Source of the DNA: Candidatus Lokiarchaeum ossiferum
GTDB lineage: Archaea; Asgardarchaeota; Lokiarchaeia; Sigyniarchaeales; Promethearchaeaceae
Direction: 5' to 3'
Assembly (NCBI GenBank): GCA_025839675.1
Contig: CP104013.1
Span: 1,860,001 to 1,892,000, forward strand
DNA length: 32,000 nt
Positions 1 through 26,192 of the stretch are shown in pieces. Every line of letters starts with the position of its first letter. Positions within the stretch are counted from its first letter, which is position 1. The notes under the pieces were generated by a model, which was not told the origin of the DNA, searched no databases, and saw only the letters and a list, made by a program, of their open reading frames with translations. The position numbers and the translations under genes were made by a program.

Positions 1-3000
1 CTCACCCCATGGATATATTATCGGAGGATTAATTACTTCTATTTCAGTCTCCCAATATTCAATTATTTCTAAATCGAGATTAACTGTTTTTGTTGCAGTA
101 TTCTCTTTTTGGGCACTTAGAGTTAAGGTGTATTGTCCTGCCGGGAAATTAATAAGCGATTTATTACAAATATATTCTCCTGTACTTACCTCATAGACAT
201 CTAAATCCAATCCGATTGAATCTATCCTTCCGGATAACGTCGGATAAATTTCGAGGAAACTCAAAAATTGAACTCCCAAGCTTAACACTTCATTTTGTGC
301 AATTTTTATCGCATTCGAAGATATTTTAAAATCTTTACCAATTGAATAAACGAAATCCACTGATCTTCGAAGAACTAAAATATTCACAGAAGATTTTTCG
401 GAAAGTGAATAATTGGTTAATTCCATTGTGAATTCAAGCAAGAATGATCCCACTTTACTCGCAAGGAAAGTAAAATTATATTCACCATTTTCTGTAAAGT
501 CCAGATACCCTCTTTCAATAGAATTACTTCCGGGTTGAGAAACGTTGTACAAATTATACTCTATTAATGCCCCATCGATCCTTTTTCCTAAAATACTGCT
601 GGAAGATTCAGTGACATTCATTATGACGTTTATGTCGATTGAATCATCGAAATAAAGTTCTACTTCTTGGATCTCCGATTCACTATCAAATGGTGTAAGA
701 GAAGTATCCACAGGACGAATTGAAACCCATGGTTTTACAGTTGCTATAGAATATTGAGATTGTTCAATGGTTGGAATGATATAGAATAATTTCTCACTTG
801 CTACTTCTAAAACACTCGTATTTACCTCAATTCGATAATAACCATCGCCATAAGCACCATCATCTTTTAGATTTTCCCAAGTCCAATTTGCAGGATCACT
901 CGAAGAAAGCAAAATTTCTTCAACTTCAGTAGCACCTTCCATATAAGTAATCGAGAGTTGAGAAATTTCGGCATCACTCAGCGGATCGCTTAATCGAGGT
1001 TCGGATGTGCATTCATAATAAACATAGAATGTGACATTATTACTCCAAGAAGTTGATAATGGAGGATTAACGATTTCTAATTTGGAACTCCAGGTAGATA
1101 AGATTTCCACATTTATTTTGATAGTTGAATTTTCGTGGTTCATTTTTTCAGTGATAATGTAAAATTCGTGGAAACCTAAACTAAAACCAGAAGCACTTAC
1201 CGTACAGTTATATTGCCATTCTCCAAGCCCATAATTATAATTCATTATAGGATTGGCAAGAGTATCTAAATATACCGTAATACTTGCATCATTGACTTGG
1301 CTGGAATTACTCACATAGGTATAATTCAAAAATGTCGTGATATTTTCCGTGATTGATGTTCGTAGTGAAGTATCACTTATTTTGAAGTCGGATTCAATAA
1401 AAGTATCTGTTTGAGTATCTACAGGTAAAATAGTAATCACTACAGTCAAGGATTGCGCCGTAAGGTTTCTTGCAGCAGCACTCAAACTGATTGTGTAAAC
1501 CCCAACATTCAAACTATATTTTGAAACAGTGAGTAAATACACACTACTGCTCGCATCTAAACTCGCTAATGTTCCCGAAAATACAGTATCTTGAATGGTA
1601 TATTCAATGGTTGAAATCGAATCAGAAATGTTCATAATTTCAGGAAGAACTGTTGTATAGTTGAAAGAAATAACAATATCTTGATCCCATTGTTTAGTAA
1701 GTTCAGATGTAGATGTTATTCGTTGGAATTTTGTGGTGTGATTCAATATTCGAATTTCACAAACAAAAGTAGAACTTTGCAAATCTTCAGTACCAGCATT
1801 TTGACCTCCTACTACAAATGTAAACACATAAGTTCCTGCCCCATACTGTGTTGAGAATAAACTAATATTGTATAAACCGGTCCCCACAGATAAATCATTG
1901 AAATCATCTGAGGATGAATCATTTATACTGTTTCCATTTTTAGTTAATTCCCAACTTCCTGTAGTTAGCCCTACTCCATGAGTTACAGCAGCATCATTGA
2001 AGAGATCATAAAAATATAGTTCTATTTCTACTGAATCCCCATAATACATTGTGAGATAAAATTGTGAACTTGAATCACTTGTTTGATTGTTATCATGAAC
2101 ACTGTCCCATCCTGTAATTCCAGATTTTCCAAAATATAAATCAGTATTTGATAAACTGGTTTTATGTTCTGTTAAGGAAACATACACAATTTTCGATTGG
2201 ATTGTGTCTGCAGTAATAGTCCAATTATAGATCCCATAATTTCCATTTGTTGGAGAAATAGATATTGGCCTGTATTTATTCTGATAGTTAACAGTAATAT
2301 TATAAATAGAACGAGGACAACGTATTGTGAGATTACCTTGGGCATTACTTTGGAAATAAGTAATATTTAACCCAGTATAGAAATTTTTAAGAGTAATATT
2401 TGCGTTGTATAAACCTCTGTAAGCAATTGGAATATTATCATCAGCATCCCAAACCATTAAGTTTATTGTTGTCAAATTACAATCCAATAAAGATCCGGTT
2501 AAAACATAATCTTGATCTTGTGGATCGATTGCTATGTAATTTGGGTTTTCATAAATAATATAATCTGTGGTTAACCCAGAAGATTCTTCTCCAACAGTAT
2601 ATTTTACCCATACATCCCAAGATGCACTATAAATGTTTTGTAATCGAATTTTACCACTCCCATCCGAAACAATCTCGAATGTTTTGGAAGAATCTGCGTT
2701 GTCAGTAAAATTAACAACCGCATTGGGAATAATATTACCATCATGATCATAGACTGTTAATTCATATGTTGTTAAGTTTGCATTAATCTCTTCAAAGATA
2801 TAATCATTTGCTGTAGCAATTTCTAAGGAAAAGTTTAAGATGATTTCCCTTCCACTACCAGCAGCAACATCCACAACTAAATTCCAAGAATCACTCTCAG
2901 TACTATTATATATTCCTAGAAATTCAATAACTCCATCATCCAAATTCCCACTAAAACTCGTACCATCCTTATTAGTCAATTGGATCGAAGGTGATACTGA

Positions 3001-5844: not shown

Positions 5845-6106
5845 TTAATTACCTCAAATTTTTTGGTATTTAGTTATATTACTTACTCTAAAGGTCAAAT
5901 AAGTTTTATGGATAAATTTTCACAATTTACAAGCAAAATTTATTTAGCTAAAAGACTAAAACAAAACACTTTTTTTAAATTTAAGGAATTAAAAATAAAA
6001 CAATCAAGAAAAAATGAAAATTGAAAGCAGAAAGTCCAAATAAGAATGTCAAATTAAAAAATGAAACCTTACTTGGACCATATTTACAATAAATAAAGAA
6101 ATATTT

Positions 6107-6120
6107 AAAAAATCAAAAAA
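6107..6120 (-). terminator. Bipartite oligo-T tract (T6-GA-T6 on the minus strand) just downstream of partner gene copy 1
   Basis: The plus strand reads aaaaaatcaaaaaa at 6107-6120, 15-28 nt beyond the stop codon at 6135-6137. Oligo-T tracts act as archaeal terminators. An analogous T6-AA-T8 tract follows copy 2 although the flanks are otherwise unrelated. Confidence 0.5.
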
Positions 6121-6134
6121 GACTAAGTGAAGAA

Positions 6135-7268
6135 TCAATCAGCTGCGACTTCTTCCTTCTTTTTCGCCACCGCTTTCTTCAATTTCGCTTGAGCATAATA
6201 TTCGTCTTTCATCATATCCAAGGCTTTTAACAGCGCATTCGGATTTTGAGAGCGGGTACGATACTGTTGACGAATGTTGTCAATATTATAGCGCGGATAA
6301 AAGCGTTCAATGAAGAAATCCGAGGTCAAACAGAAATATTCATTGTTCTTATCGTCTTGGAAGACCGCAATCATCTTGGTTTCCCACATGGCTTTCAGAA
6401 CCCGATCCACATCATCCACCCCTTTCTTCCGAAGTTTTTCCAAGTCATTGCGGGTCACCATCGCTTCCCGCATCAATTTGATCACTTCGTAGCAAGCTGG
6501 ATCCAACAGAACTTTATCAATGATCGCCAAATTATCTGCTTCGCTGGGGACATACAGTTCAAAGAAATTCCGCACTTCCTTGATGTAAGAATCCTTCAAG
6601 GATGCAGGCAAGTGATGATCCACCGGATCTTTAACCAGCTCCACCGGAGGGGTGCGTAAGACCATGATATCTTCAGTTAAAAAGACCAAATCAGAAGATA
6701 ACCCCTTCACGGAAGCGATTTTCACGAGCCCAAGTTTCACCATCCCCGCCAAGAGGTTTTCCACATCCACAAAACCCTCGCGGTATTGATCCTTCATCCA
6801 AATCGAGATTTCAGATTTCGAAATGGCAGTTTCTTCCCGTAACCGATTCAGCAACATCCGTTTTACATCACTATTTAATAACATCCCATAGCGTTGTTCT
6901 TCGGTTAACGTTGGATAGACCGACAGACGTTGGAACAAGGGAGGCAAAATCGAATTTAAGGAATCCGACTCCAAATTCATCAGAATCTGGCGTGTAATTT
7001 CCGCTAAGCCCTCTTCATACACATCCCCATCTTCTTCAGCGGTGAGTATCAAGATCACATACACTGCCGATTCGGGTCCAGTATAATAGGAAGCGAGGTT
7101 GACCGCCCCTGCCGTCAATGACACCATTCCCGCTTCACCGGTAAATTCATGCTGAGAATACAGCTGCATCAAGGTTTTCTCTTGAATTACCACTTCTTCA
7201 GGGTAGGCACCTAACACTTCGACCCCTACCCGTTCATCCCAATGCATAATGACTAATCCGGTTGGCAT
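6135..7268 (-). CDS. 377-aa soluble partner protein, copy 1. Predicted longin/roadblock-like N-domain, two winged-helix-like domains and a Lys-rich tail. Function unknown.
   Basis: Complete ORF in the track. The ATG lies 1 nt after the stop of the upstream giant gene, with GGAGGG 7 nt upstream. No hydrophobic stretch long enough for a TM helix or signal peptide. No P-loop or catalytic motif recognised. Residues 1-360 are identical to the ORF at 13648-14781. Confidence 0.93.
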   Translation of the reverse strand: MPTGLVIMHWDERVGVEVLGAYPEEVVIQEKTLMQLYSQHEFTGEAGMVSLTAGAVNLASYYTGPESAVYVILILTAEEDGDVYEEGLAEITRQILMNLESDSLNSILPPLFQRLSVYPTLTEEQRYGMLLNSDVKRMLLNRLREETAISKSEISIWMKDQYREGFVDVENLLAGMVKLGLVKIASVKGLSSDLVFLTEDIMVLRTPPVELVKDPVDHHLPASLKDSYIKEVRNFFELYVPSEADNLAIIDKVLLDPACYEVIKLMREAMVTRNDLEKLRKKGVDDVDRVLKAMWETKMIAVFQDDKNNEYFCLTSDFFIERFYPRYNIDNIRQQYRTRSQNPNALLKALDMMKDEYYAQAKLKKAVAKKKEEVAAD

Positions 7269-7281
7269 TTTAAAGCCCTCC
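7266..7281 (-). promoter_or_regulatory. Translational-coupling junction: Shine-Dalgarno motif embedded in the last codons of the giant gene, then stop, 1 nt, start
   Basis: The minus strand reads GTA GGA GGG CTT TAA A ATG. GGAGGG (7281-7276) encodes the terminal ...VGGL and lies 7 nt upstream of the partner ATG (7268-7266). Confidence 0.7.
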
Positions 7282-10200
7282 TACTTTTTCATCACCTGAA
7301 GTGACATTTGCATCCTTATTAGATTTAACTTCATCGAGATTTAAAACTGCTGCTAAATCTAAATCGATTAAAGACCATCGATTTTTTAACCTTTCTAATA
7401 TTTCGTTCTTAGCAGACACTGTAATTAACTCATCTCCAATGGAACGCTTCTTTTCTATGTCCTTCTTAGTGGCGTCAATTTGCTTGATTATTAATGGAAT
7501 ATTGGCATACTTGATATAACTGTATGTTGCAAGTATTACTGCCATAGCTCCAATTGTAGCTCCAATTATCATCCAGGATCGATAAGTGACTCCTATTAGT
7601 GGATCTATAGGTAATCCAACTTGAAAAGCAATAGGAATAGAAGTTGTTGTATAATTTTCCCTTGTAATAATTATATTAAATTGATAGGGTTGATTTCTTG
7701 CTTCTAATAAAGCTAATTCATCTAAACTTAAGGTAATGGAATACACTCCAGCTGTGGCAGAATCTTCAATCAAATTGTACGTTTTTCCATTCAATTCAAA
7801 AGAGACGGATACATCAGACAAACTGATTCCACTAATTTTATCAGCAATATTAATACTAAAACTAATTTCCCTATTTTTCGGTGTAAATATAGTATTATTA
7901 TCGATATTTAATCCAGTTTGCAAGGAGAATTCTTTTCGTAAACAATTGAAAAATGCAGAAATTGTTGTAGATGTATAATTTTCAAGAAAACTAGTGACAT
8001 AAATTTTGTATTCACCAATTTTAATTGCATTTAATGAGAATTGATACAATCCATTACTTAGATCATCGAGAATTCCACTTTGAAGTATTTGAGACTCATC
8101 TTCTCTACTCACAATTTGATAATTCAATTGTGCACCTTCTATGTTTTTCCCATAAATCGCACTACTTTCATCAGTTACATTTAATTTAACGGAAAACTTT
8201 GTAGATTGATCTAAGATCAATTCAAAAGACTCTACATTTTGGATTTCAGTAGTTGAAGGAGTCAGACCAGTTCGAAGGGCTGTGATCCATATATATGGGC
8301 GAATCGATGCATTTTGGTATAATGAATAGTCTAGAGTTGGAATAGCATAAAATACCCCCGACGATTCGACAGATACAACACTAGTATTAAACCAAATTAA
8401 ATAGTACCCACTTCCATAATTCGGATTATTTTTCAAATTTTCCCAATCCCATAATAACCCTCGCTGATTTTCACCTAAGCTTAATAATTGTAATTCAATC
8501 CCTTCCACTTTATGAGTAATATTTAATGAAAGGACATCAGCAGCATCTAATGCCACATCAGAACGTGTTGGATCGACACTTTCATATCTTACAACGAAGG
8601 ATGAGATATTATTCCAAGGGTATACTGTTGGAGGAGTAATGATCTCCAGATTTGTATCCCAATAATCTAAAATCTCAAGATCGAGATAAATTGATTTGCT
8701 TTCATAGTAGAGCTTGGAAGCTTGAATCTTAACATCGTATTTCCCAATGTCATATAAATCAACATCAATGGAACAATTATAAACACCATTTCCATTGTTG
8801 AATAATGGAATTTCTGCATTATCTTCAACACCTTCAATGAATGCAGATACTGACGCACTCAAACCGAGATAGTTTTCAGATAAATCTGTATAATTGATTT
8901 GGAAGGTAATAATTTCTCCTTTAGCACCTTTCATATAAGTAGATGTGTAAGCAAATAAGTTATCGATAGACACATCTAATACTGTCGGATTTGCTATAAT
9001 TTGAAGGGCGTATGTTTGATCAACTTCCTTATAGTTGGTTTGATTTCCAAAAATTCTTAGAGTATAAATTCCAACAGGTAAATTCAAATTCACAATTGAA
9101 AGATTGTATGTACACCAGTTATCATCCATATCTTGATTCAAAACATATTGTTCAAGTACCCCCGAAACACTTCTACCTACTACTTCATAATTTAAAATGG
9201 CGTTAGAAATGTTTCTCATTTCAGGATAAACACTATAATAATCTACTTGAAGGGAAAGTGCACTATTCCATTGAATAACAAAATCTTCACCCTCATTTTT
9301 CATTTCGAGATAAGAATTGAAGTTCAATATTTCTATTTCAATCTCTAAAAACGAATCTTGAAGATCCGTTTTATTCAATAATAAACTAAAGATATAAGTG
9401 CCAGCAAATAATGATTCTGTGTAAAATGAAAGATTATAAAAACCAGAACCAACATCAAGATCTCCAATATTAGTTGAAGAATTCACAATTTGATTCGAAT
9501 CTTTCCGTAAAAGTGACCAAACACCTCCTGCACCTATAATAGGGACACCATCTTGAATATCTTCAAAATATAATTCTAATGAAAATATTTCTCCATAATA
9601 AACTTCTATAGAATAAGGTTCAATTGTGGTAATATTTTGTGAAGACCAATACTGAGAGCTAAACGAAGAGATAGTCAACTTAGTCTTATGTTCTTGAATA
9701 GAAACGTTGAATACTACAGAAGTTAAGCTAGTTAGTACAATAGTGTTTGTTAAGTTCTCATCTTGTCCGATATCATTTCCAATGATAAAACTACGCAATT
9801 TGTTTTTCACAGATACAGAAAAGTTCCATTGTGTTGCTGGTAATCTAAAAGTAACTATTCCATCACTGTTGGTTAAACTTGAGGTGATGTTAACATTCAC
9901 ACCAGAAGTTGCATTCATTAACGTGACATTTGCCGACCGTAAAATTTGATCATCATAATCTGAATAATAAATATCAGCAACAAAAATATTCAAGGTTGTT
10001 AGATTACAATTAAATATATCATAATAACGCCTACCATCAGAACCAATAGAAAACGTAATATCTTTGGTAAATATAGTATAGTTAACAGCATCATTCACAG
10101 AATATTTTACAGAAAATGACCATATATCATCATATAGTCCTTTAAAGGACACATTTCCAAATGAATTGCTTTGTTTTATAGTAATATCTTCGCCGCTGCT

Positions 10201-13200
10201 ATTTGATATTTGAATAAATGCCCCTTCAATGATTTTTTGGTCAATATCTTTTAAATTAACCATAATTCTGGCATCATAATTTTCGACAGCAGTTCCTTTA
10301 ATAACCCTAGGATCATTCTGTAACCCTTTGGCTCGAATTTTTGTTATACCACCATCATAATTATCAAAAACTTGACCGTACATCGTGAATGTCATCGTAT
10401 CTCCTGCAGGTACCGCTTGAGCACGAATTTGAAAAGAATTTGAAAGACCCCCTACCCCTAATGTCGCTCGATAAAGATAAGAATAAGATGTAGTTGGAGC
10501 AATATCCCAGACAGTTCCAACTCCAACCATATCATTTTCATCCCACATTGTATGCCAAGCTTCCTTACGGAATAGATAAGTTGCTGTAGTATCAATTGAA
10601 CTATAACTATCATCTGTACAAAATTCCTTTGATCCATCGATTCCTAAATCTGCATCGTCATCAAAATTCATCCCTCCAAATCCATAAGCTGTATCTTCGT
10701 CAACTGGTTGAGACCAATCATTTGTAAAAGTCCAGTATCCAGCACCTACTGCCGTTTTTGCATAGATTTGGTGATCAATTTTTATTGTATCATCAAGATA
10801 ATTCAGAGTATAAAATCGTTCGTAGATAAAATCTGACGAATCAAAAACCATCTTCATAACTACTCGGATTGGACCACTTGAAACAATTTGTAAACTTGAT
10901 AGACCATAAAAACAATTGTATGGCTCAGTATCATATCGCTGAGTTATTCCACCATATTGCCAATCTTTCAAAGCCCAGCCTCGACTTGTCCCTGGATTAG
11001 TTAAAGTTTTACCGGATCTAAGATCGGTCACCTCATAAATATGATCATGATATTGACCAACAGGAGGCAAACCTTCAGCCAAGGATATTTGAATCTTAGA
11101 GTTTCTAATTGTAAAATCATCGTTATCATTCATGATATAATCGAGAGCACTCGAACTTGTATAATTAACAGCGTCTTTATAATCAAATTCAGTATTGTCA
11201 AAATATATGAAATAAAATCGAGAACGTGATGAAGTAGTTTTCCCATCTGCCACCCAACAAAGAGTCCCTTTTGCGTTATTCTCTGCAATGAAATATTCAT
11301 CTTTATCAAATTGATAAGGAATTTCTCGAGATTCTCCCGAAAATTCATCCCATTCAATAATTCGAATTGAATTTTCGTCAAATGTGGAAAACACCCCTAA
11401 ATCAGTGAATATTTCAGTAAAATCCAATTCTTCTTCTATTAAATAATTACTGTAATAATGGTTTCCTTTTGGGGACGATAAATTCAAATTCAATCGATAG
11501 CTCCATTGGGCATCCCACCATGGAGCTTCAGAAATCATAGCTAAATTTGATTGATATTCACGATACGTTGGAGGATTCACATATATTTCAGGCATTCCCA
11601 TAAATGAAGAAGTTTGATTTAAATAAGCATAACCACCAAAATAATTGTTATTAATAATTGATTCTACTTCTCCAGTTGTATTGAAATATACGTAGTATTT
11701 TCTTACTTCACGAGTGTAGGTAGTTGATAAGGCAAGATCTGGGATTTCCGTTAAAACATTATTACTACTTGAAAAACCAGTCGTAAAACCCCAATTCGAA
11801 TCACCATCCCTATTTCTGTAACGTACCAATAAGGAATGCCACCCTTTAGTCACCTTAGCCAAATTATATCGTATATATTGAGTTAAATCCGCGGTTGAAT
11901 CATTATAATTATAACCTCGATTTACACCGTCCCAATAAAGCCACATATCATCAAGTCGTTCAGCAGTAAACCAAGTATATGTTGAATCAACAGTTTCAGG
12001 AAAATATATATAGGTTTGCGCCCAAGCATAATGATTTGTACCTCCTGGTACACCCAAAGGCACGCTAAAATCAATATAATTACCATTACTTAGGTATTCA
12101 TCCCATTGATATCCAAAAGTAATATCATCTGGACTATAATAGTTTTCTAAATTTATCACTCGAGTTTCCGTACCAACCACGGCCCAATTTCGAATAAAGC
12201 CTCCATAAGTATTATTACAAGATATTGTATCGGATCCATTTTTTATCCAAGAAATTGTAGCAGTTGCATTTAATTGTGAATCAAACCCAATAACTTCATC
12301 ATCCCAATCAATAGTCATTGTACGCTCGCCGTTCAAACTAGAAGTAGAATTATATTCAACTAAAATTGCAGAATCTAAGTCAATATCTGCAGATAATCGC
12401 ATATTCGAAAGCTGGTCAGTAAAATTTATTTTTTGAGAGAGAGTTTTATCTGTTTCCAAATTCATTTCATCAGTTACATCAATGGAAAATCTATATTGAT
12501 ATTCATTACCGTCAGAATACCATGGATCTTTTTGATCGCCATTATATATATCCACAATTTCTTCATCTGTTAGTTCCACATCATAGATACGTATGTCGTC
12601 GAGATAATCTGCAAAACGATAGTTATTTGATCGATAATTTCCAAGAATATACACTTCTGACATTGTTTTTCGGTTAGCACTCCCCAAAAATTCCCCATCT
12701 ATATAGAAATCAGTTTGAGAATCATGACCTGTTGCGACTAAATGATGCCATCCGGTATAAGAACTCAAGTCATGACCTATTCCAGACCAACCCGCATCAT
12801 AAGTTCCTAAATCATAAGTGTTAGGATAACCCCCAACCCAAAATTGTCCTTGACCACATACTAACATTTGCCACCTACCAACTTGGACAATATCTTTGAA
12901 CCAAGCAGATATGGTCCATTGTTCATCAAGATCCACATCATTTATTAAACGAATACGTGAATTGGATTCTGGAATATCCAACACATTTCCTCTTTCGGGA
13001 TCTAAATATTGACTCACGACTTCAGGAGTTCCGTCATGACCATTATTTGTGACATCGCGCCCCAAATCTTCGGAATCTTCAAAATCATAATGAGCAACTA
13101 AATGATCTGAGGCAATAATACCACTTGATCTAATAGATGCAGTATTTTCAGACTCATCGCCAACCAGATTTTCAAATGCGTCTGATGCGATATTAGAATC

Positions 13201-13323: not shown

Positions 13324-13619
13324 TTATAGTTTGTATAAGTCGTATATTTATTTTTCGCTCATCCCCATAGATTTTGGAATTCCAATACAATAATGGAAAT
13401 TGAAGTTTTATCAATTTCTTTCACATTAGAACCATTCCTTATAATAATGGATTTTTCTTTTGTTATAATCGAATTAAGGAATCAAAATGCTAAGGAAATT
13501 TGATAGATTAATTCACATTTAAGAGTTAGAAGAGGTTATTCCATATCCAGAAATGAGAAATGGTAAAAATCAAAAAAAATGTTGAAGAAGTAAAATTGGT
13601 TAAATTGTTTTTAGGAAGT

Positions 13620-13635
13620 AAAAAAAATTAAAAAA
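13620..13635 (-). terminator. Bipartite oligo-T tract (T6-AA-T8 on the minus strand) downstream of partner gene copy 2
   Basis: The plus strand has A8 (13620-13627), tt, then A6 (13630-13635), 13-28 nt beyond the stop at 13648-13650. The arrangement matches that after copy 1. Confidence 0.5.
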
Positions 13636-13647
13636 TTACGCCACGAA

Positions 13648-14781
13648 TTATTCTACTGCGACTTCTTCCTTCTTTTTCGCCGCCGCTTTCTTCAATTTCA
13701 CTTGGGCATAATACTCGTCCTTCATCATATCCAAGGCTTTTAACAGCGCATTCGGATTTTGAGAGCGGGTACGATACTGTTGACGAATGTTGTCAATATT
13801 ATAACGCGGATAAAAACGTTCAATGAAGAAATCCGAGGTCAAACAGAAATATTCATTGTTCTTATCATCTTGGAAGACCGCAATCATCTTGGTTTCCCAC
13901 ATGGCTTTCAAAACCCGATCCACATCATCCACCCCTTTCTTCCGAAGTTTTTCCAAATCGTTGCGAGTCACCATGGCTTCCCGCATCAATTTAATCACTT
14001 CATAGCAGGCCGGATCCAAGAGTACTTTATCGATGATCGCCAAATTATCCGCTTCACTGGGGACATACAGTTCAAAGAAATTGCGTACTTCCTTGATGTA
14101 AGAATCCTTCAAAGATGCCGGTAGATGATGATCCACGGGATCTTTGACCAACTCCACCGGAGGAGTACGTAAAACCATGATATCCTCGGTTAAAAAGACC
14201 AAATCAGAAGATAACCCCTTCACGGAAGCGATTTTCACAAGCCCAAGTTTCACCATCCCCGCCAAGAGGTTTTCCACATCCACAAAACCTTCGCGGTATT
14301 GATCCTTCATCCAAATCGAGATTTCGGATTTCGAGATGGCGGTTTCTTCCCGTAACCGATTCAATAACATCCGTTTGACATCACTATTTAATAACATCCC
14401 ATAGCGTTGTTCTTCGGTTAACGTTGGATAGACTGATAGACGTTGGAACAAGGGAGGCAAAATCGAATTTAAGGAATCCGACTCCAAATTCATCAGAATC
14501 TGACGCGTAATTTCCGCCAATCCTTCTTCATACACATCCCCATCTTCTTCAGCGGTGAGAATCAAGATCACATACACTGCCGATTCGGGTCCGGTATAAT
14601 AGGAAGCGAGATTGACCGCCCCTGCCGTCAATGACACCATTCCAGCTTCACCGGTAAATTCATGTTGGGAATAGAGTTGCATCAAGGTTTTCTCTTGAAT
14701 GACCACTTCTTCAGGGTAGGCCCCTAACACTTCGACACCCACCCGTTCATCCCAATGCATAATGACTAATCCGGTGGGCAT
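13648..14781 (-). CDS. 377-aa soluble partner protein, copy 2
   Basis: Complete ORF. The junction with the upstream giant gene is the same (GGAGGGCTTTAAAATG). Amino acid differences from copy 1 occur only at residues 361, 367, 376 and 377. The stop codon differs (TAA here, TGA in copy 1). Confidence 0.93.
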   Translation of the reverse strand: MPTGLVIMHWDERVGVEVLGAYPEEVVIQEKTLMQLYSQHEFTGEAGMVSLTAGAVNLASYYTGPESAVYVILILTAEEDGDVYEEGLAEITRQILMNLESDSLNSILPPLFQRLSVYPTLTEEQRYGMLLNSDVKRMLLNRLREETAISKSEISIWMKDQYREGFVDVENLLAGMVKLGLVKIASVKGLSSDLVFLTEDIMVLRTPPVELVKDPVDHHLPASLKDSYIKEVRNFFELYVPSEADNLAIIDKVLLDPACYEVIKLMREAMVTRNDLEKLRKKGVDDVDRVLKAMWETKMIAVFQDDKNNEYFCLTSDFFIERFYPRYNIDNIRQQYRTRSQNPNALLKALDMMKDEYYAQVKLKKAAAKKKEEVAVE

Positions 14782-14794
14782 TTTAAAGCCCTCC
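14779..14794 (-). promoter_or_regulatory. Translational-coupling junction (SD in terminal codons, stop, 1 nt, start), second instance
   Basis: The plus strand has cat at 14779-14781, t, tta at 14783-14785 and ccctcc at 14789-14794. This is identical to the junction at 7266-7281. Confidence 0.7.
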
Positions 14795-17700
14795 TACTTC
14801 TTCATCACCAGTGGTAATGACAGAATCTGATGCAGTTTTAACATCATTCACCCCTAAAATCGAAGCAAGATCTAAATCTAAAATATCCCATCGATCTTTA
14901 AGACGTTCAACAATTTCTTCTTTGGAGCTTATTGAGATATTGGATTCACCGATCTCATTGTTCTTTTCAATATCTTTTTTCGTTGCATTAATCTTTTTGA
15001 TAATCATCGGAATATTTGCATATTGGACATACTTGGTCACTCCTGCAATAACTATTGCCAATAATCCCACTGCACCACCAATAAATACAAAGATCTTTGG
15101 AACACCTACATTTCCTACAGTAAATTCTGGAGGTGTTACTGAAATAGTAATTGTAAATGGCTCAATGGTATAATTTGCTTTATCTACTGAAACGATTGCA
15201 ATTTCGGTTTTTGCTGCAAGTAGTGCGTTATAATCGATGGAAGCAGTATCTATCACATATCGATATGTTCCAAGAGTATCAGTTTCTTCGACAGTCCAAT
15301 TACTACCTCGATAGTTCATTGAAACTGCTGCCCCCGTTAAAGGTGCTTGAGCGACGGGATCATATAAAGAAAATTCGATCACAATATTTTCACCTTCAGG
15401 CATTTCAACAATTTTATCCGCCAATTCAGCGCTCAATGTTAGAGATATTGGTTTTTCTTTAATATTCAAAGTAATTGACGCAGATCGTTCAATATAATTT
15501 GCTTGACCCAAATGAACAACAAAGAAATACATTCCAACTTGACGTGTAGCAGTATTGAAATCAAGGAGATATTTTCCATCCCCAATATCAACCAATTGGC
15601 CTTCATGAGTTATGCCTTGGAATTCCCATTCGTAGTAAGCAACAATTGCATTTGAAATGCCAACGTATTCACTATCCTCATAAGCGAAAATCATCTGATA
15701 TCCTGTGGTCACATTAATTGAAGTATCCAAATTTACAAATATGGAATTATTAATACTCGTTTGAATCCGATTGATTTTTACATTTATCACTAAGTTTTGA
15801 GTTTGATATTGATATTTTGTGGCTTCAAGATGCATAGTATAAGACCCAACACTTAAAAACTCAGTAGAATTTAGTTCGATCTCATATACTCCTCCACCAA
15901 TCGGAGTCAAATACCCTGTAAAACCAGAAACTTGTCCAACATAATAAGAAATTTCCCCATCCGTTATTGGTCCGTCATTATGAGTATCGAAGAAAGAGAC
16001 TGAAACGGTGAAATTTTCCTTCCATGTTTTATCAAATGACGTTGCTTCTGCACTTATAGATGTGGAAATACCATTAACATAGACGGTGATATATATTTGA
16101 TTCGTTTCATATTGCGACTTGGTGAATTTAACTCGGAATGTGTAAGTTCCTTGTTTACCAAAATCAATCGTATTGAGTTCAAGAGTATATAACCCCATTC
16201 CAGAGTCTGTGAAGATCCCATTACCATATCCAACAGCGGAATAGGTTACTGGACCTCCAATTATGGCGGCAGGAACACTGAGGTTTCTAATATCCATAAG
16301 GTTTACAGAAATATTAAAAATATCTCCCCAATATGCCACTTTTTCATCATCTATATGATTAGAGGACAAAGAAGTTGGAATTATCTTGATGGTCAAAACA
16401 ATTAAAGCTTGGCGACTTCCATATGTTTCTGCGAAGGCATCCAATTGAATGGTATAGGTACCGTTTTGACCAAACTGTGTTGTATTAAATTCCAAACGGA
16501 ATTCATTAGAACCTATATAATTCAAAAATCCTGTAATTTCAGATAAAGAAGAGACATTATACGAGATTTGACCACCAATTACTTCTTGAATATCTTGAGG
16601 ATCTACAACATCTTCATAATATGCACCAATTGTAAAATTCTCTCCCCAGAAATATTCAATTTCATCTGAATAGATTAAAGTTAGATTTGTTTTGATTAAA
16701 TTAATATCTACAATAACTGTTAACTGTCGAGATTGATATTCATCCTTACTCGCTACAACGATGAAAGTATAAGTTCCAGCTCCAGGAAAATCGTCATCAG
16801 TATTAAATGTGATATTGTAGGTACCACCACCAACATGGGAAATAGTCCCAGACGCAGAATACCCACTTGGTCCAGAAACCACATAAGAAATGGATCCATC
16901 GGTAATTGCTATAGGATTCTGTGAATCAGAGTTATCCAAGTAACTTACAGATATGTTAAAATTCTGATTCAATTGTTTTGAAATAGTTAATTCATCTGCT
17001 GTCAAAATTGTAGAAATAATTGAAACATCAACGGTTAACACTACCTGTTGAGTCAAATATTGATTTTTCGTTGCAGTCATGGTTATGGTATAAGTTCCAT
17101 TACCTCCAATATCGGTTTCAGAATTTAATGATAAATAATAAATTCCTGAGCCTTGAGGAGTAAGAAAACCAGAAGCAATTACACCTACAGGACTTATGGT
17201 AAAAGAGACGGTTCCATCATTTATCGGAATAGAAGACGCAAGTTGTTCATCCGTAAAAGTAACCGAAAGAACAAAATTTTCACCCCAGATCACTTCAATA
17301 ACGGAATCACCATTAAGAACTAAATCTGTAGGTACAATGGAAATAGTTAACACTATACTCATTTGAACGGTTTCATATTGGTTCTTTGTTGCAGTGATTG
17401 TAAAAGTATAAGTTCCTGCGTGATCAAAATTAATTGAATTGAAATCAAAGGAATACACACCTGGATTGCTCGATTGATGATTAAGGATACCTAAATCTGA
17501 ATATCCTGAACCCGAGACACTAAAATCGACATTGCTATCAAGAATAGGAGAATCATCTCTAGAATCAGTTAAAGTAACAGAAACAGTAAACCCTTCACCC
17601 CAAAATACATCAATTTCATCATTCCCGACCAAATTAACGGGAATCTTGGAAATATTCAAGAGAATGGATAACGATCTAGTTCCATAATTTACTTTACTCG

Positions 17701-20700
17701 CTTCAATTTGGATCGTATATGTTCCAGCACTAGTAAACACAGTTGAATTTAATTCCATTTGGTAATTTCCATTTGCAATATGAATCAGATCTCCAAAAAT
17801 TGCACTCTTTCCAACTACAGAATAAGAAACACTTCCATCTGTAATGCCAATCGGCGATGCTGGAATTGTTAAATCTTCATACGTCAATGAAAGGGTGAAA
17901 TTCTGATTCCAAAATACATCAATTTGAGATTCAAGGGAAGTTAAATCAGTTGGTCGAATATCAATATCAACGGAAATAACAATTACTTTCTGCTGAAATT
18001 CTTCCTTAGTTGCTGTAATAGTATAATAAAACGTCCCACCGCTTTCAGGGAAGTCATCCGTATAAAATACGGTAGAATTATAAATCCCAGATGATGTATG
18101 AGTTAAAGTTCCAGAACCTGTATAACCATCGGGACCACTAACTGAATAAGAAACAAGATCTGCATTTGTAATTGGGAGAGAACTGCTGTTATGTTCATCA
18201 TAATAATTAATAGACAACACAAAAGATTCTCCAAAATTTCGGGATATTTGTGTACTTGCTGTGCTGATGGACGTTGGGATAATATTTACATTTATAGAGA
18301 CCCACATCTGCTGACTTTGATAGTTATCTTTTTGAGCCACAACCTGTAGGGTATAGGATCCTGTCGTACCGAAACTTGTAGAATTCAGGGTAATATTATA
18401 AATTCCAGCTTCATTTGATTCAGAAATATAATAAGCATTGAATTCAGGATCACCAACCAAGTTATAATAAACTGTTGCCCCTGAGACAGGTAAATTATTA
18501 ATTGTATCAGTAAAGTTTACTGAAAGTGTTAAGTTTTCATTCCAATATTTCTCAAGCGCACTAGCGTAATCATCACGATTAATATCGGTTGCGATAGGAA
18601 GTATTATCAAATCGATCCAAGTATTTTGACTTGTATAGTTTTGCAGAGTAACAACTATCTCCAGGCGATATTGTCCAATTTCCAAGGCTTTCAACGTATC
18701 TATCTCATAAGTATAGTTAGAAAATTCACCTGAAGATTGCTCCGAAAATAATGCATTCGTTTCATAATCCCAGTTCAATAATACACTTGCTCCCGAAAGA
18801 TCTTGTGAATTATGCTGATAAACTAAAGTGACATCAAATTGTTCACCCCAAATTTTTGATATCACCACTTTATTAATTTGAGCTTGATTAGACTCGTCAA
18901 TAATAGAGACCGAAGTATCTAAATTGAAGACTTGAAGAGGAATTGTGGTTTTATTATGTACGGGGTATCCAGCTTTAGTTGCAACCGCTTCAAGAGTATA
19001 ATAATTGCCACCCACAAGATTGGAAGAATTGAGAGTAAATTGATATATTCCTTGAGATATCCGTTGCATAGAACTAGTTAAGACCAGCACCAACTCTTGA
19101 TCGTATACAAAATAGTTGATGTTATCAGCATCCAGCAATGCAAACGGATCTTCACCATCGGAACTTGAGAAATTCACTGCAAAGGATTGAGATTCTCCCC
19201 AATAAAGATTCACTCCTGTGGAATTAATTTCAACTTTTGTTTGATAACTAGATAAATCCAGAAAATCCACCAGTACATCTTTTGTTTCTGCAGTGTCCAT
19301 TGAAAAATCGAGACTAGGACTCCAACTTCCAACAGCCAGGGGATCAAAAACCCAAGAAGTTTTATTCAAACTTTGAGGTTCCCCAACAAATTCGATTCCA
19401 AGAGAGTAATTACCGTAGGATGATGGTGTATATCTAAAATAAGTATAATCTATTTGCCCATCGGTTGGAGTAGTTATATTTGCTATAGACTCCGACGAAG
19501 AAGCATTTGAAAACATACAGATTGCATTGGACAAAGGTTGATTTGATCCATCTTCTTGAGTAAGGGCGCTAACATTGAATGAAATTGTGGTCAAATTGGC
19601 CGTGATAAATTCAGTGCTTCTTTCATAATAGCTGACATTGATTTTCCCACTCTGTGCCGAAGATGTATCGCTTATTTGGAATCTAAGATCTTTTACATCA
19701 ATCCCATTTGTCGAGACTGTTATATTTGAGTTTTGAATACTTGCATTGTGCAATAATTCGACTTCAATATCTTGATAATTTGTTCCATAAACATAATATT
19801 CAGTAATGTTGGTATCAAAATTAATAAAATCAGCGGTTACATACCCGATTCGCTTTGAATTAAATAAAGAAGCATCCAATGAAATAATAAAAAGAGTTCC
19901 ACTAGTAAAGTTTCCAGAACCTGCATCAAAATTGGATTGATCAATCAAATCCAGGGTAATCAAATCAGATGATTCAGTGGAAGTTCGAGTCATCGTTCCA
20001 TTATAGATACTAAAAATGGGATCATTGTAAACATAAGTTGCTGGCAAGAAAGTAGTATCATAAAAGACTTCGTAATCAAATTGATTAGAATAATTCTGAC
20101 ATCGAATTGTGGTATAGCCATTTGAATCCACTGTGCTATTTGCAAGAATTTCTTGACTTATTGAATCATTATACACCACCACCCTCGCATTTGAGATCGG
20201 TAAATCATCAAAATCATTAACATGAAAATCCATGGACCAAATGTTAGACTGGATCAAAATGCTATAATCAAATTCATCTAAAAGGACTTCATCAATAAAC
20301 GCTGCAATGAATGTTTCAGTCCTTCCTTCAGAAAGATATTCAATAGTAATATTGTATCGTTGATTAATTAAAACATTGGTAAAAACCGTATAACCATTTT
20401 CATCTGTTGATTGAATTTGCTCAAATACACTATCAGTTTTATTGATCGTAACCACAGCATTAGGCACCGGAAACCCATCAATATCCAATACTTGAACTTC
20501 AAGGTTTGAAGAGACAGACTCGATAGCACCTAATGTTGGAATAACATCATTCGTTTTGTGTTGATTAACAGTAACGTTCCAAATTGACATATCATCGAAT
20601 AAGACATAGTTGTTGAGGGAACGACTGGAATCATCATCAAAAATGTAGACCAAATATTCAATATCAGTTGCAAAACTACTCAAATCAACATTAAAATTAT

Positions 20701-21652
20701 TCCACTCACCCAATGCGTCAACATAATCGCCTTGTTCCAAATAAGCCCAAGTTTGCGAACCAGAATTTTGTATACCTAAAAATTCATTTGTATAACTAGT
20801 TCTTACATTGGATACAGCACATCCGACAATTTCTGCCGTCCCATATGCTTCCCACGCAAAAGTACTGTAAGTTAACCAAGTTTCCCCTATAACTGGTATT
20901 GGTGCACCCACATCTTGAGCTCTCCAATCATTATACTCAATTCTCATAGAAGAAGCTCCACGATGGACTTCATCAGAGTATAAATAATAATCATCATAGC
21001 CATCATCGTTCCCGTCATAAAAATCCAAAATTACTCCACTCAGAGTACTTCTTTCAAACCCTTCATGAAAAAGCCGAAGTGGGCCATAATTCAAGCCCCG
21101 TGTATCAGGATGTCTTATAATAGGGTCATTCAACGCGTTAGTATTACCTAAGCAGAAATAGAGGAAATATGTTTTGGATATTGAGGGTCCAAAACTTCCC
21201 TCAATGATCCAAGCAAGCTCTCCATTATCAGAAGTATCGGATATAGCAGGATCATATTGCATTGGAATAGAATTTGCTGAACCAGAAGTAGTTTGTTCAA
21301 TCAACCTTAAACTACTTGCATTAACTCTATTATTTAAATCAAACTCGTTAAAATATTCTGTAAAATTCAAATAGAGTTGAACAGGCGCATCAGTTTGAGA
21401 AACCCCATTTGGTGAGACTTCAATTTCTATCCTATATTCATATGATTCATCCCACCATCGGAAACTACTTGCTGCTGATGAAATAGGATTTGCAATCATT
21501 TCATCCAGATGTGTTTCCTTTTTTTCCAACATATTTTTTTCGTGTAGAACATTACCTTGACTAGATTCACTAAATATATTTGAAATTATTGAATCATTGC
21601 AAAGAAAAATACTGAAAATTACAATAACTGTGATTGTTTTTTTAAATTTCAT
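14783..21652 (-). CDS. Giant surface protein, paralog 3 (2289 aa): signal peptide, DUF2341-like and jelly-roll-like head, prealbumin-like domains, 13 tandem Ig-like repeats, one TM helix and a conserved cytoplasmic tail
   Basis: Complete ORF. The N-terminus MKFKKTITVIVIFSIFLCNDS looks like a signal peptide. GAAGGT lies immediately upstream of the ATG. N-x-S/T sequons are dense. Confidence 0.95.
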   Translation of the reverse strand: MKFKKTITVIVIFSIFLCNDSIISNIFSESSQGNVLHEKNMLEKKETHLDEMIANPISSAASSFRWWDESYEYRIEIEVSPNGVSQTDAPVQLYLNFTEYFNEFDLNNRVNASSLRLIEQTTSGSANSIPMQYDPAISDTSDNGELAWIIEGSFGPSISKTYFLYFCLGNTNALNDPIIRHPDTRGLNYGPLRLFHEGFERSTLSGVILDFYDGNDDGYDDYYLYSDEVHRGASSMRIEYNDWRAQDVGAPIPVIGETWLTYSTFAWEAYGTAEIVGCAVSNVRTSYTNEFLGIQNSGSQTWAYLEQGDYVDALGEWNNFNVDLSSFATDIEYLVYIFDDDSSRSLNNYVLFDDMSIWNVTVNQHKTNDVIPTLGAIESVSSNLEVQVLDIDGFPVPNAVVTINKTDSVFEQIQSTDENGYTVFTNVLINQRYNITIEYLSEGRTETFIAAFIDEVLLDEFDYSILIQSNIWSMDFHVNDFDDLPISNARVVVYNDSISQEILANSTVDSNGYTTIRCQNYSNQFDYEVFYDTTFLPATYVYNDPIFSIYNGTMTRTSTESSDLITLDLIDQSNFDAGSGNFTSGTLFIISLDASLFNSKRIGYVTADFINFDTNITEYYVYGTNYQDIEVELLHNASIQNSNITVSTNGIDVKDLRFQISDTSSAQSGKINVSYYERSTEFITANLTTISFNVSALTQEDGSNQPLSNAICMFSNASSSESIANITTPTDGQIDYTYFRYTPSSYGNYSLGIEFVGEPQSLNKTSWVFDPLAVGSWSPSLDFSMDTAETKDVLVDFLDLSSYQTKVEINSTGVNLYWGESQSFAVNFSSSDGEDPFALLDADNINYFVYDQELVLVLTSSMQRISQGIYQFTLNSSNLVGGNYYTLEAVATKAGYPVHNKTTIPLQVFNLDTSVSIIDESNQAQINKVVISKIWGEQFDVTLVYQHNSQDLSGASVLLNWDYETNALFSEQSSGEFSNYTYEIDTLKALEIGQYRLEIVVTLQNYTSQNTWIDLIILPIATDINRDDYASALEKYWNENLTLSVNFTDTINNLPVSGATVYYNLVGDPEFNAYYISESNEAGIYNITLNSTSFGTTGSYTLQVVAQKDNYQSQQMWVSINVNIIPTSISTASTQISRNFGESFVLSINYYDEHNSSSLPITNADLVSYSVSGPDGYTGSGTLTHTSSGIYNSTVFYTDDFPESGGTFYYTITATKEEFQQKVIVISVDIDIRPTDLTSLESQIDVFWNQNFTLSLTYEDLTIPASPIGITDGSVSYSVVGKSAIFGDLIHIANGNYQMELNSTVFTSAGTYTIQIEASKVNYGTRSLSILLNISKIPVNLVGNDEIDVFWGEGFTVSVTLTDSRDDSPILDSNVDFSVSGSGYSDLGILNHQSSNPGVYSFDFNSINFDHAGTYTFTITATKNQYETVQMSIVLTISIVPTDLVLNGDSVIEVIWGENFVLSVTFTDEQLASSIPINDGTVSFTISPVGVIASGFLTPQGSGIYYLSLNSETDIGGNGTYTITMTATKNQYLTQQVVLTVDVSIISTILTADELTISKQLNQNFNISVSYLDNSDSQNPIAITDGSISYVVSGPSGYSASGTISHVGGGTYNITFNTDDDFPGAGTYTFIVVASKDEYQSRQLTVIVDINLIKTNLTLIYSDEIEYFWGENFTIGAYYEDVVDPQDIQEVIGGQISYNVSSLSEITGFLNYIGSNEFRLEFNTTQFGQNGTYTIQLDAFAETYGSRQALIVLTIKIIPTSLSSNHIDDEKVAYWGDIFNISVNLMDIRNLSVPAAIIGGPVTYSAVGYGNGIFTDSGMGLYTLELNTIDFGKQGTYTFRVKFTKSQYETNQIYITVYVNGISTSISAEATSFDKTWKENFTVSVSFFDTHNDGPITDGEISYYVGQVSGFTGYLTPIGGGVYEIELNSTEFLSVGSYTMHLEATKYQYQTQNLVINVKINRIQTSINNSIFVNLDTSINVTTGYQMIFAYEDSEYVGISNAIVAYYEWEFQGITHEGQLVDIGDGKYLLDFNTATRQVGMYFFVVHLGQANYIERSASITLNIKEKPISLTLSAELADKIVEMPEGENIVIEFSLYDPVAQAPLTGAAVSMNYRGSNWTVEETDTLGTYRYVIDTASIDYNALLAAKTEIAIVSVDKANYTIEPFTITISVTPPEFTVGNVGVPKIFVFIGGAVGLLAIVIAGVTKYVQYANIPMIIKKINATKKDIEKNNEIGESNISISSKEEIVERLKDRWDILDLDLASILGVNDVKTASDSVITTGDEEVGGL
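14786..15103 (-). other. C-terminal membrane anchor (IFVFIGGAVGLLAIVIAGV) plus the 79-aa conserved cytoplasmic tail of paralog 3
   Basis: The tail is YANIPMIIKKINATKKDIEKNNEIGESNISISSKEEIVERLKDRWDILDLDLASILGVNDVKTASDSVITTGDEEVGGL. It has the same length as the paralog 2 tail and the same YANIP...ATKKDIEK...ERLK.RW...DLDLA...GDE.VGGL landmarks. Confidence 0.8.
15134..19246 (-). repeat. 13 tandem protein-level repeats of 101-108 aa (Ig-like/beta-sandwich pattern) in paralog 3, aa ~803-2173
   Basis: Repeat starts, counted by hand, fall at aa 803, 911, 1019, 1125, 1233, 1337, 1440, 1546, 1653, 1758, 1862, 1963 and 2068. The recurring consensus is I-P-T-x-L...(I/V)-x-V-x-W-G-E-x-F-x-(L/V)-S-V-x-(F/Y)-x-D...P-I-x-D-G-x-V-S-Y-x-V...G-x-L...G-x-Y-x-(L/F)-x-(L/F)-N-(S/T)...G-T-Y-T-(F/I)-x-(I/V)-x-A-x-K-x-x-Y-x-(S/T). 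The repeats are diverged at DNA level. Confidence 0.8.
20060..20503 (-). other. Two carboxypeptidase-regulatory-like (prealbumin-fold) modules in paralog 3, aa ~384-531
   Basis: LEVQVLDIDGFPVPNAVVTINKTDSVFEQIQSTDENGYTVFTNVLINQRYNITIEY and DFHVNDFDDLPISNARVVVYNDSISQEILANSTVDSNGYTTIRC fit the pattern v.V.D..G.Pi..A.V.........T.TD.nG.y.f..l..g.Y.i.v. Similar stretches occur in paralogs 1 and 2. By eye only. Confidence 0.45.
21137..21463 (-). other. DUF2341-like module (aa ~64-172) at the mature N-terminus of paralog 3
   Basis: FRWWDESYEYRIEIEVSPNG...APVQLYLNF...NASSLRLIEQ...SIPMQYDP...GELAWIIEG...TYFLYFCLGN parallels the module in paralog 2 (WWDAQWSYRLNLNLSS...RFYFIYFDN). Confidence 0.45.
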
Positions 21653-26014: not shown

Positions 26015-26192
26015 CGGTTTAAAATCAGGGGTAACGATAGGATCATTAATCGATTGTGCTCGCTTTTTTATTTGAAATGGTATGATTTATCCCCAGATCA
26101 AATGAATGGAGGATGAAATAAGTAAGTTATCAATTTTCACAAACGACAAATAGGATGATTACTTTACCTTAACCAGAAAGTGATTGTCTGTT

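Follow-up and report, generated by a model that had tools for sequence, protein, structure and literature searches.

The stretch of DNA analyzed here, a window of 32,000 nucleotides (nt) from Candidatus Lokiarchaeum ossiferum (class Promethearchaeia, also called Lokiarchaeia), contains an array of three minus-strand units, each composed of a gene for a giant surface protein of 2000–2400 amino acids (aa; G1, G2 and G3) and, after a gap of 1 nt, a gene for a 377-aa partner protein (Table 1). Giant and partner very probably form one receptor-like complex. In line with the original prediction for this locus, open reading frames (ORFs), N-termini and counts of N-x-S/T sequons established that three huge surface proteins with signal peptides and many sequons are encoded, and the 1-nt gap was found at both junctions within the window. 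The ORFs of partners 2 and 3 (P2 and P3) showed 100% identity to NEF87_001533 and NEF87_001535, respectively. A third partner, anticipated just outside the window, is indeed located just left of it (NEF87_001531) and completes the set of array partners. The corresponding junction was seen in a second L. ossiferum genome (L078), in which G1 has 2380 aa, terminates with ...GDEEVGGL and a stop codon, and is followed by the partner after 1 nt. A fourth L. ossiferum module, found elsewhere in the genome, pairs a tail-bearing giant of 3420 aa with a partner that begins after a gap of 1 nt and is only 60% identical. The oligo-T tracts and AT-rich spacers of approximately 300 nt that had been described between units were also present, with T6/T6 and T6/T8 runs just past the partner stop codons in the spacers of 290 and 324 nt, respectively.

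The two junctions in the window had the same sequence (...GTA GGA GGG CTT TAA A ATG), with the GGAGGG motif placed 7 nt 5' of the partner ATG. Across the loci compared, a Shine–Dalgarno (SD) sequence GGAGGT was present at positions -14 to -9 in 79 of 84 partner starts, within the last codons of the giant gene, which explains the conserved C-terminal Gly-Gly of the giant's tail. A programmed frameshift or readthrough joining giant and partner was also considered. It was ruled out because the gap varies from -1 to +3 nt among loci, and it is further countered by an in-frame TAG located five codons before the partner ATG in the window and by the SD being the conserved feature.

Some relatives encode both proteins as a single chain. 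At least nine representative proteins contained ectodomain, transmembrane (TM) helix, tail, a linker of approximately 25 residues and partner in one polypeptide, with neither a stop, a Met nor the GG between tail and partner. These natural fusions indicate that tail and partner together make up the cytoplasmic half of a receptor. In an AlphaFold model of one of them, the tail helices were predicted with a local confidence score (pLDDT) of 80–92, higher than for the TM helix, and the segment linking tail and partner was disordered; this confidence of the tail is consistent with a docked state.

At least 587 proteins are closely related to the partner (455 representatives at 50% identity); none of them has a Pfam domain, and nearly all are named “hypothetical”. 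When GTDB species genomes were scanned with the partner, 270 places were confirmed, and 77 loci were analyzed. Taking the best partner match in each locus, a large same-strand ORF bearing the tail was located at -1 to +3 nt before the partner in 73 of the 73 loci with upstream DNA, the one exception being a probable frameshift. Complete upstream ORFs encoded 1287–2602 aa, and the conserved tail behind a TM helix closed every one of these proteins. When all partner copies were included, 74 of 78 were placed directly after a tail-bearing giant. In the reverse direction, metagenome contigs were scanned with the tail alone, employing a profile built from the alignment of the major clade only (A3; an earlier tail alignment, A2, was too divergent). 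A partner N-terminus followed 68 of the 72 tails with downstream DNA, and two of the four unpaired tails were merely longer tails, which raises the count to approximately 70 of 72. The adjacency of tail and partner in other genomes, on which the original prediction had staked its case beforehand, was thus upheld both ways, and the module layout that it had put forward (variable ectodomain, constant TM helix and tail, cytoplasmic partner) is real.

Four solo copies of the partner were observed, each with its own SD and no giant upstream (L029 4377-5489, L033 4352-5455, L044 4282-5385 and L066 3550-4653). Each of them lies 200–400 nt upstream of a complete module, resulting in a partner–giant–partner order.

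Single-copy modules were the rule, and tandem arrays of two modules were found in 14 other loci. In 12 of the 13 other loci compared, partner copies in tandem were only 61–85% identical; near-identical copies within one array were found solely in the L. ossiferum array and in L038. This divergence, the 60% identity of the fourth L. ossiferum partner and the natural fusions indicate cognate pairs that diverge together, and not the one shared adaptor that had been proposed. As candidates for a conserved third gene, RuBisCO-like, HisC-like, DNA ligase and LRR/HEAT neighbors were inspected and rejected, being one-clade synteny absent from L. ossiferum. Typical Lokiarchaeial modules were also encountered in metagenome-assembled genomes (MAGs) labelled Nanopelagicaceae bacterium, Hyphomicrobiales bacterium, Hodarchaeota, Odinarchaeota or Hermodarchaeota (L030, L060, L046, L048 and L052). 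The near-identity of their tails to tails from Promethearchaeota MAGs makes it likely that these contigs were mis-binned or mislabelled.

P2 and P3 differed at 69 of 1134 nt and in only 4 aa, all of them within the last 17 residues, with a synonymous divergence (dS) of 0.32 and a nonsynonymous-to-synonymous ratio (dN/dS) of 0.014. Their identity is therefore kept by selection, and recent duplication as its cause was ruled out by the same two values. Generally, dN/dS ranged from 0.01 to 0.05 for the partner compared with 0.19 for G1, and the mean column identity of the partner family was 62%. The partners of modules 1 and 3 were closer to each other (dS of 0.07) than either was to that of module 2 (0.32–0.33). 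An identical 32-aa tail end was also observed in modules 1 and 3 (LDLDLASILGVNDVKTASDSVITTGDEEVGGL; window 14783-15034 vs. L078 9900-9999). Together, the shared tail end and the low dS point to gene conversion across the tail–partner boundary of these two modules.

Regarding base composition, G+C was 0.41–0.43 in the partner genes vs. 0.30–0.36 in giants and spacers (window 6001-7000 and 14001-15000), a difference that could stem from constraints on the amino acids or codons of so highly conserved a gene. Antisense (+) ORFs of 121–137 aa were noted inside both partner genes (6246-6659 and 13759-14124); they are probably by-products of the higher G+C and of duplication rather than genes.

At their N-termini, the three giants have a basic n-region and then a hydrophobic stretch, as in signal peptides, and they contain 48, 38 and 54 sequons, compared with the 31, 25 and 33 expected from composition (approximately 1.5-fold), while the partners have none. 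G2 and G3 each end with one TM helix and a hydrophilic tail, in agreement with the original prediction except for the length of the tail, which is 80 or 83 aa instead of 79. The paralogy of the giants was likewise sustained in part: it was clear for their C-terminal halves (22–34% identity in patches), but the heads do not align. Further, describing these proteins as hypervariable was an overstatement, as identity between the G1 orthologues of the two L. ossiferum genomes reaches 91%, at a dN/dS of 0.19, so that the ectodomains evolve faster than the partner without being hypervariable.

With respect to domain composition, a LamG head was detected in G2, in one P. syntrophicum paralogue and in others. 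The stalks gave weak matches to CarboxypepD_reg, SpaA and Big_1, and the membrane-proximal domain was Ig-like in one modelled member. One member from P. syntrophicum MK-D1 carries an FG-GAP (integrin-alpha-type) propeller head instead of LamG (L012 5166-9995; FG-GAP_3, E 4e-17); FG-GAP gave zero matches in the giants of the window. Conservation climbs toward the membrane, with a mean pairwise identity of 0.23–0.37 across the last 325 ectodomain residues vs. 0.50 for TM helix and tail, and the tail of approximately 80 aa is the best-conserved part. Its invariant positions are an I-P just past the TM helix, a Lys, and a Trp in the second helix, within the motifs IP..[IV]K and W..L[DG]L. In the giant tails of L018, L019 and L034, the stretch from the conserved Trp helix to the final GG contains long acidic repeats of Pro and Glu (EPPEPEREYPEVEKE...), which indicates that the distal tail is a linker of variable length.

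The original prediction had also set the locus apart from archaeosortase or sortase substrates, from type I or type V secretion adhesin operons and from S-layer loci, and this assessment held. No PGF or LPxTG signal was found in the giants, where the TM helix is followed by the hydrophilic 80–83-aa tail ending in GGL. Features of a type I or type V secretion adhesin operon were not found either: the window neighbors encode a Zn-ribbon protein, PadR, Hsp20, MFS transporters and a U32 peptidase, in a single-membrane archaeon. An S-layer is absent from L. ossiferum, in which “complex surface proteins” have been visualized by cryo-electron tomography (PMC9834061).

To describe the partner, an AlphaFold2 model of the protein was employed (pLDDT of 89, predicted TM-score of 0.78). 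P2 comprises a longin domain (1-97), a helical linker, a first winged helix (~134-206), a second winged helix (~257-324) and a long C-terminal helix. The longin elements in the model are E2-11, E15-22, H30-43, E47-53, E56-62, E69-76 and H81-97, i.e., the beta-beta-alpha-beta-beta-beta-alpha order. When the N-terminal domain was searched with Foldseek, Ykt6, Sec22b, VAMP7, sigma-adaptin and a Loki Roadblock-Longin protein were retrieved, all with a probability of 1.00. Membership of the longin SNAREs found no backing, as neither a heptad SNARE motif, a TM helix nor a lipid-anchor signal was detected in the partner.

At full length, the GATOR1 chains NPRL2/NPRL3 came first against the PDB (9v0j_A, E 9e-4, probability 0.98), and a second family member gave the same top matches. 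These alignments covered approximately 365–440 columns with E values of 9e-4 to 2e-3 and probabilities of 0.84–0.98, but the TM-scores were 0.21–0.25 and the root-mean-square deviation exceeded 20 Å. They were followed by Fuzzy/Inturned, BLOC-3, Mon1-Ccz1 and DENND1, all of them multi-longin GTPase regulators. No DENN or dDENN domain was found past the longin domain of the partner, its place being taken by the winged helices. The C-terminal part matched ESCRT-II weakly (2zme_A and 3cuq_A; E 0.01–0.02, probability 0.72–0.90), with no Pfam EAP30/ESCRT-II match.

Two loops of the longin domain were strongly conserved. The beta1-beta2 loop reads W10-D11-x-R13-x-G15...P23, where W10, R13 and G15 are invariant and D11 is nearly so. 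The W10-D11-x3-G15 spacing is that of C9orf72 W33-D34...G38, with V, T or A instead of Pro at the following position 16 of the partner. The C9orf72 segment W33-D34...G38-P39 has been reported to be essential for the GTPase-activating protein (GAP) activity of C9orf72-SMCR8 (PMC12290439). The beta4-beta5 loop is an invariant S60-Y-Y-T-G-P65.

A remote branch of the family was found in Thorarchaeota. Its members are 21–25% identical, keep the MP.G...WD...G..P, ASYYTG and R.PP motifs, and are automatically annotated as “ArsR family”. In two Thor genomes the homologue is a solo gene without a giant, and a divergent Loki paralogue of the partner is also solo. These solo branches imply that the fold has a function independent of giants. 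Further, in P0163, P0170 and P0198 an N-terminal longin–winged helix–winged helix unit was observed in proteins of 570–1050 aa with SIR2-like (SIR2_2) and TPR domains, or TPR alone, architectures that are reminiscent of signalling or conflict systems. Taking solo branches and SIR2/TPR fusions together, this unit looks like a reusable adaptor that was attached to giants by one Lokiarchaeial clade.

The genomic surroundings also provided a hint of a GTPase client. The Thor homologue is located 0.5–1.5 kb from the gene of a 546–605-aa protein with an Arf-like GTPase domain (residues 122-259), and in seven Loki loci an Arf-like GTPase with an N-terminal extension of approximately 120 aa is encoded 50–92 nt from the module. 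The GTPase domain of the Thor protein is 39–43% identical to the Loki GTPase. These Arf-like neighborhoods in Loki and Thor are circumstantial, and they are the only genomic hint of this kind. Around the solo Thor homologue, three small-GTPase genes were counted within approximately 15–17 kb (L161 3894-18909, L162 2789-19933), two of which, besides the Arf-like protein, lie within 10 kb. A Gtr1/RagA GTPase was examined as a possible gene of the module and rejected: it was found in 20 of 77 loci, 1.7–9 kb away, not clearly above chance.

We propose that the two proteins of a unit are the halves of a single receptor-like complex that spans the membrane. The giant is a type-I membrane glycoprotein with a lineage-variable head, an Ig/prealbumin-like stalk, a TM helix and a basic tail of approximately 80 aa. 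The partner is translated from the giant's mRNA, with the SD in the last tail codons restarting translation, and would dock on the tail under the membrane in a 1:1 ratio; in at least one lineage, giant and partner form one chain. The likeness to longin platforms (NPRL2/NPRL3, C9orf72/SMCR8 and FLCN/FNIP) and the WD..G loop led us to propose GTPase recruitment or regulation, such that the partner may recruit or regulate an Arf- or Rag-type GTPase at the receptor. As a whole, a receptor–adaptor complex whose longin platform engages a small GTPase seems to us about as well placed to be right as to be wrong, and the GTPase step at the receptor, taken separately, is put forward tentatively and with less confidence. 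The direction and the purpose of any signalling can be suggested along the same lines, since contacts of the ectodomain with partner cells, particles or glycans would be coupled to cytoskeletal or membrane remodelling. In its most far-reaching form, the proposal would describe the first prokaryotic outside-in receptor signalling through eukaryote-type small-GTPase machinery, leading from contacts of the glycosylated, lineage-variable ectodomain through the tail to a bound or fused NPRL2/C9orf72-like platform, and on via an Arf-/Rag-like GTPase to actin-/ESCRT-driven remodelling, e.g., the growth of protrusions around syntrophic partners; this version appears doubtful. If true, both receptor-to-GTPase signalling and the longin GAP/GEF (guanine nucleotide exchange factor) complexes tethered to membranes would have a precursor here that predates eukaryotes.

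Several results weigh against this proposal. Firstly, neither the window nor the surroundings of the L. ossiferum array contain a GTPase gene, and a GTPase was encoded within 10 kb in 27 of 77 loci, which by our own estimate is near chance for the GTPase density of Asgard genomes. Secondly, the similarity to NPRL2 in the model is one of fold level only: among 28 partner members, no match to Pfam NPR2/NPR3 and no other family assignment was obtained at E≤10, a PDB sequence-profile search with the partner returned no match, and hhalign of the partner vs. human NPRL2 gave a probability of only 0.3. The low TM-scores (0.25) arise because the domain orientations differ. Thirdly, the SYYTGP loop, the site of the arginine finger in NPRL2 (R78), FLCN and SMCR8, contains no Arg in a register set from secondary structure, not superposition, so that a canonical GAP mechanism is not supported. 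Finally, a physical contact between tail and partner is something that we infer and is not directly seen in the fusion model, and no expression or proteomic evidence for the modules was found.

The alternative that survives best dispenses with the GTPase. The partner could be a cortical scaffold or a dedicated chaperone that clamps its cognate tail and stabilizes, clusters, positions or sorts the coat, e.g., in connection with the lokiactin cortex or protrusions. The 1:1 evidence for tail and partner fits this alternative equally well, and a fixed gene order with the giant first would favor assembly during translation, at a ribosome bound to the membrane. The L. ossiferum locus without an encoded GTPase, the partner without an arginine finger, and a cell without an S-layer but with many surface proteins also speak in its favor. 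However, the extreme conservation of the WD.R.G and SYYTGP loops and of both winged helices seems beyond what tail binding alone would need, and neither the giant-less branches (Thorarchaeota and the divergent Loki paralogue) nor the distant members fused to SIR2/TPR signalling-type modules are readily accommodated. We consider a GTPase-free scaffold or chaperone unlikely, though to be taken seriously.

The winged helices raise a second alternative, namely a membrane-sequestered transcription factor that the tail would hold until a ligand is sensed, in the manner of anti-sigma factors or Mlc, with the fused forms resembling ToxR or Notch. Some members are automatically called “ArsR family transcriptional regulator”, and the C-terminal part gave weak Foldseek matches to CodY and Vfr, both of which are sensor proteins with a winged helix-turn-helix (HTH). 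In contrast, the partner is acidic (isoelectric point of ~5.0, net charge of -14, of which about -12 in the longin domain), and the putative recognition (H3) helices of both winged helices are net negative in the 28 members (-1.6 and -1.9). These charges argue against DNA binding and fit docking on the basic juxtamembrane part of the tail. The Pfam HTH models were silent over the same members save for HTH_24 in one of them (E 0.15), a permanent fusion behind a giant membrane protein, as seen in several lineages, would be awkward for DNA binding, and the best full-length structural matches are protein-binding platforms of longin and winged-helix domains. Such a transcription factor is improbable. 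The least probable reading of all, a variable coat for evasion of viruses or predators or for partner recognition, in which the array would be a contingency set and the partner a conserved cassette end promoting recombination or gene conversion, draws on the tandem arrays of the 14 other loci, the conversion over the 3' end of the tail and the partner in modules 1 and 3 (dS of 0.07 vs. 0.32) and the wholly different heads of paralogues, but it is opposed by selection acting on the protein and not on DNA identity (partner dN/dS of 0.01 at a dS of 0.32), by the prevalence of single-copy modules, by purifying selection on G1 (0.19) with no overall sign of diversifying selection, and by each module having its own spacer and upstream region with no invertible or silent cassettes, the spacers not having been searched for repeats.

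The coordinates of the array within the window are compiled in Table 1.

Table 1. Features of the giant–partner array in the L. ossiferum window.
Feature	Position	Strand	Description
G1 giant	1..5844	(-)	N-terminal 1948 aa in window, 3' end outside; signal peptide; 48 sequons; TM helix, tail and partner 1 past the left edge
Spacer	5845..6134	(-)	290 nt, AT-rich; oligo-T after partner stop, then G1 upstream region with GAGGT before G1 ATG; read directly
Partner P2 (NEF87_001533)	6135..7268	(-)	377 aa, acidic
G2-P2 junction	7269..7281	(-)	SD GGAGGG 7276-7281 in last G2 codons; TAA 7270-7272; 1-nt gap 7269; partner ATG 7266-7268
G2 cytoplasmic tail	7273..7512	(-)	80 aa: KYANIPLIIKQ...RWSLIDLDL...VGGL; basic juxtamembrane helix and conserved Trp helix
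G2 TM helix	7513..7575	(-)	WMIIGATIGAMAVILATYSYI
G2 giant	7270..13323	(-)	2017 aa; signal peptide, LamG head (128-256), Ig/prealbumin-like stalk, 38 sequons, TM helix, tail
Spacer	13324..13647	(-)	324 nt, AT-rich; oligo-T runs past P3 stop codon
Partner P3 (NEF87_001535)	13648..14781	(-)	377 aa; 4 aa different from P2
G3-P3 junction	14782..14794	(-)	SD GGAGGG 14789-14794; TAA 14783-14785; 1-nt gap 14782
G3 TM helix (15035-15094) and 83-aa tail (14786-15034)	14786..15094	(-)	
G3 giant	14783..21652	(-)	2289 aa; signal peptide, many repeated beta-sandwich domains, 54 sequons, TM helix, tail
Module 3 upstream (promoter) region	21653..21961	(-)	Shared divergently with plus-strand gene at 21962

Downstream of partner 1, just left of the window, L078 11337-13523 encodes a polytopic membrane protein of 728 aa that has no Pfam match and whose C-terminal domain of approximately 110 aa is soluble; by eye, the C-terminus of this protein looks roadblock- or longin-like. 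It was compared with the 731-aa protein encoded downstream of the solo Loki paralogue, and the two are not homologous. On the other side of the array, the plus-strand segment 21962-23450, divergent from G3, contains a gene for a protein of 164 aa that has two hydrophobic segments and, at its N-terminus, Cys-rich motifs resembling a zinc ribbon, and also the gene of a PadR-family regulator. The latter probably starts near 22830, and its product is a candidate local regulator of the array. Further away, between two paralogous MFS transporter genes (24725-26014 on the minus and 28677-30026 on the plus strand), lie two small ORFs without Pfam matches and the gene of a U32 peptidase (26184-27485). 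The minus-strand gene at 31129-31971 encodes a CAAX-type intramembrane protease (Pfam Rce1-like, E 8e-15) for which no link to the module was seen. A tRNA scan found no tRNA.

As for the significance of the module, hundreds of longin, roadblock and small-GTPase “eukaryotic signature” proteins are encoded by Asgard archaea, almost none of which, to our knowledge, has an assigned cellular context. Through near-obligate adjacency in both directions, translational coupling and natural fusion, one such family of longin proteins is now tied to a defined class of cell-surface proteins. The Lokiarchaeia concerned have been cultured and imaged, lack an S-layer and show “complex surface proteins”, so far unexplained, on cell bodies and protrusions. 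The tie provides a testable link between the Asgard cell surface and the “eukaryote-like” internal machinery. If the adaptor engages a GTPase, it would set an archaeal precedent for receptor-to-GTPase coupling, with a bearing on how the archaeal ancestor of eukaryotes interacted with partner cells. If it is an anchor only, the giants would still be a major, previously unannotated part of the lokiarchaeal cell envelope.

The original prediction had recognized no described system in this composition. This stands for the pairing of giant and partner, of which no description was found in the searchable literature, but not for the partner itself, which has relatives at fold level (longin plus winged helices, with NPRL2/NPRL3 the nearest) in a domain class already catalogued as NPRL2-like longins. 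Liu et al. 2021 reported NPRL2-like proteins in Thor and some Loki MAGs; they described fusions with domains of two-component systems but did not connect these proteins to the cell surface. L. ossiferum is reported to be enriched in “NPRL2-like longin domain” eukaryotic signature proteins (PMC9834061). The partner belongs to the same broad class as these Asgard proteins of the asCOGs, although membership of NEF87_001531, NEF87_001533 and NEF87_001535 in the catalogued orthogroup could not be confirmed. The catalogued proteins differ in being described without an obligatory pairing or fusion to giant tail-bearing surface proteins. It appears, then, that the domain class is known and that the module, i.e., the obligate coupling or fusion to such giants and the tail itself, is undescribed.

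Among eukaryotic systems, GATOR1 NPRL2/NPRL3 (Npr2/Npr3 of SEA) appear to share with the partner an N-terminal longin domain followed by a helical/winged-helix region in approximately 380 aa, and they act on a membrane surface via membrane-bound factors, as is proposed for the partner. In contrast, the partner has no detectable sequence relationship to them and no Arg in the loop of NPRL2 R78, has no DEPDC5, has no NPRL2/NPRL3-type heterodimer mate identified at the locus, and would be tethered by the tail of the giant instead of KICSTOR or Rag-Ragulator. The C9orf72-SMCR8 and FLCN-FNIP complexes are recruited to membranes by integral membrane proteins (PQLC2 and SLC38A9). The partner resembles these complexes in the invariant W-D-x3-G of the longin beta1-beta2 loop, as in C9orf72; it differs in the V/T/A, not Pro, that follows the Gly and in the winged helices that replace DENN/dDENN.

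A prokaryotic precedent for a longin/roadblock-fold GTPase regulator tied to surface adhesion is MglA/MglB of Myxococcus, a Ras-like GTPase with its Roadblock GAP. Unlike the partner, MglB is small and has only one domain; it is not known to be encoded alongside an adhesin, nor to bind or be fused to one, and it has no sequence relationship to the partner. The giants, in turn, resemble archaeal S-layer/PGF-CTERM glycoproteins in being secreted and heavily N-glycosylated, with Ig-like repeats and a C-terminal anchor, but they have no PGF-CTERM, carry an 80-aa cytoplasmic tail with its partner, and occur in a species without an ordered S-layer. The comparison with integrin–talin that had been drawn, and likewise that with cadherin–catenin, is an analogy of logic only (in each, one TM helix links a large, modular ectodomain to a short conserved tail, which has an adaptor of its own in the cytoplasm). 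Tail and adaptor are not homologous, there is neither an alpha/beta heterodimer nor an NPxY/GFFKR motif, and the adaptor fold would point to small-GTPase regulation instead. With no described prokaryotic counterpart, the module is probably a membrane-tethered longin platform or, seen from the outside, a single-pass receptor with its own cytoplasmic adaptor.

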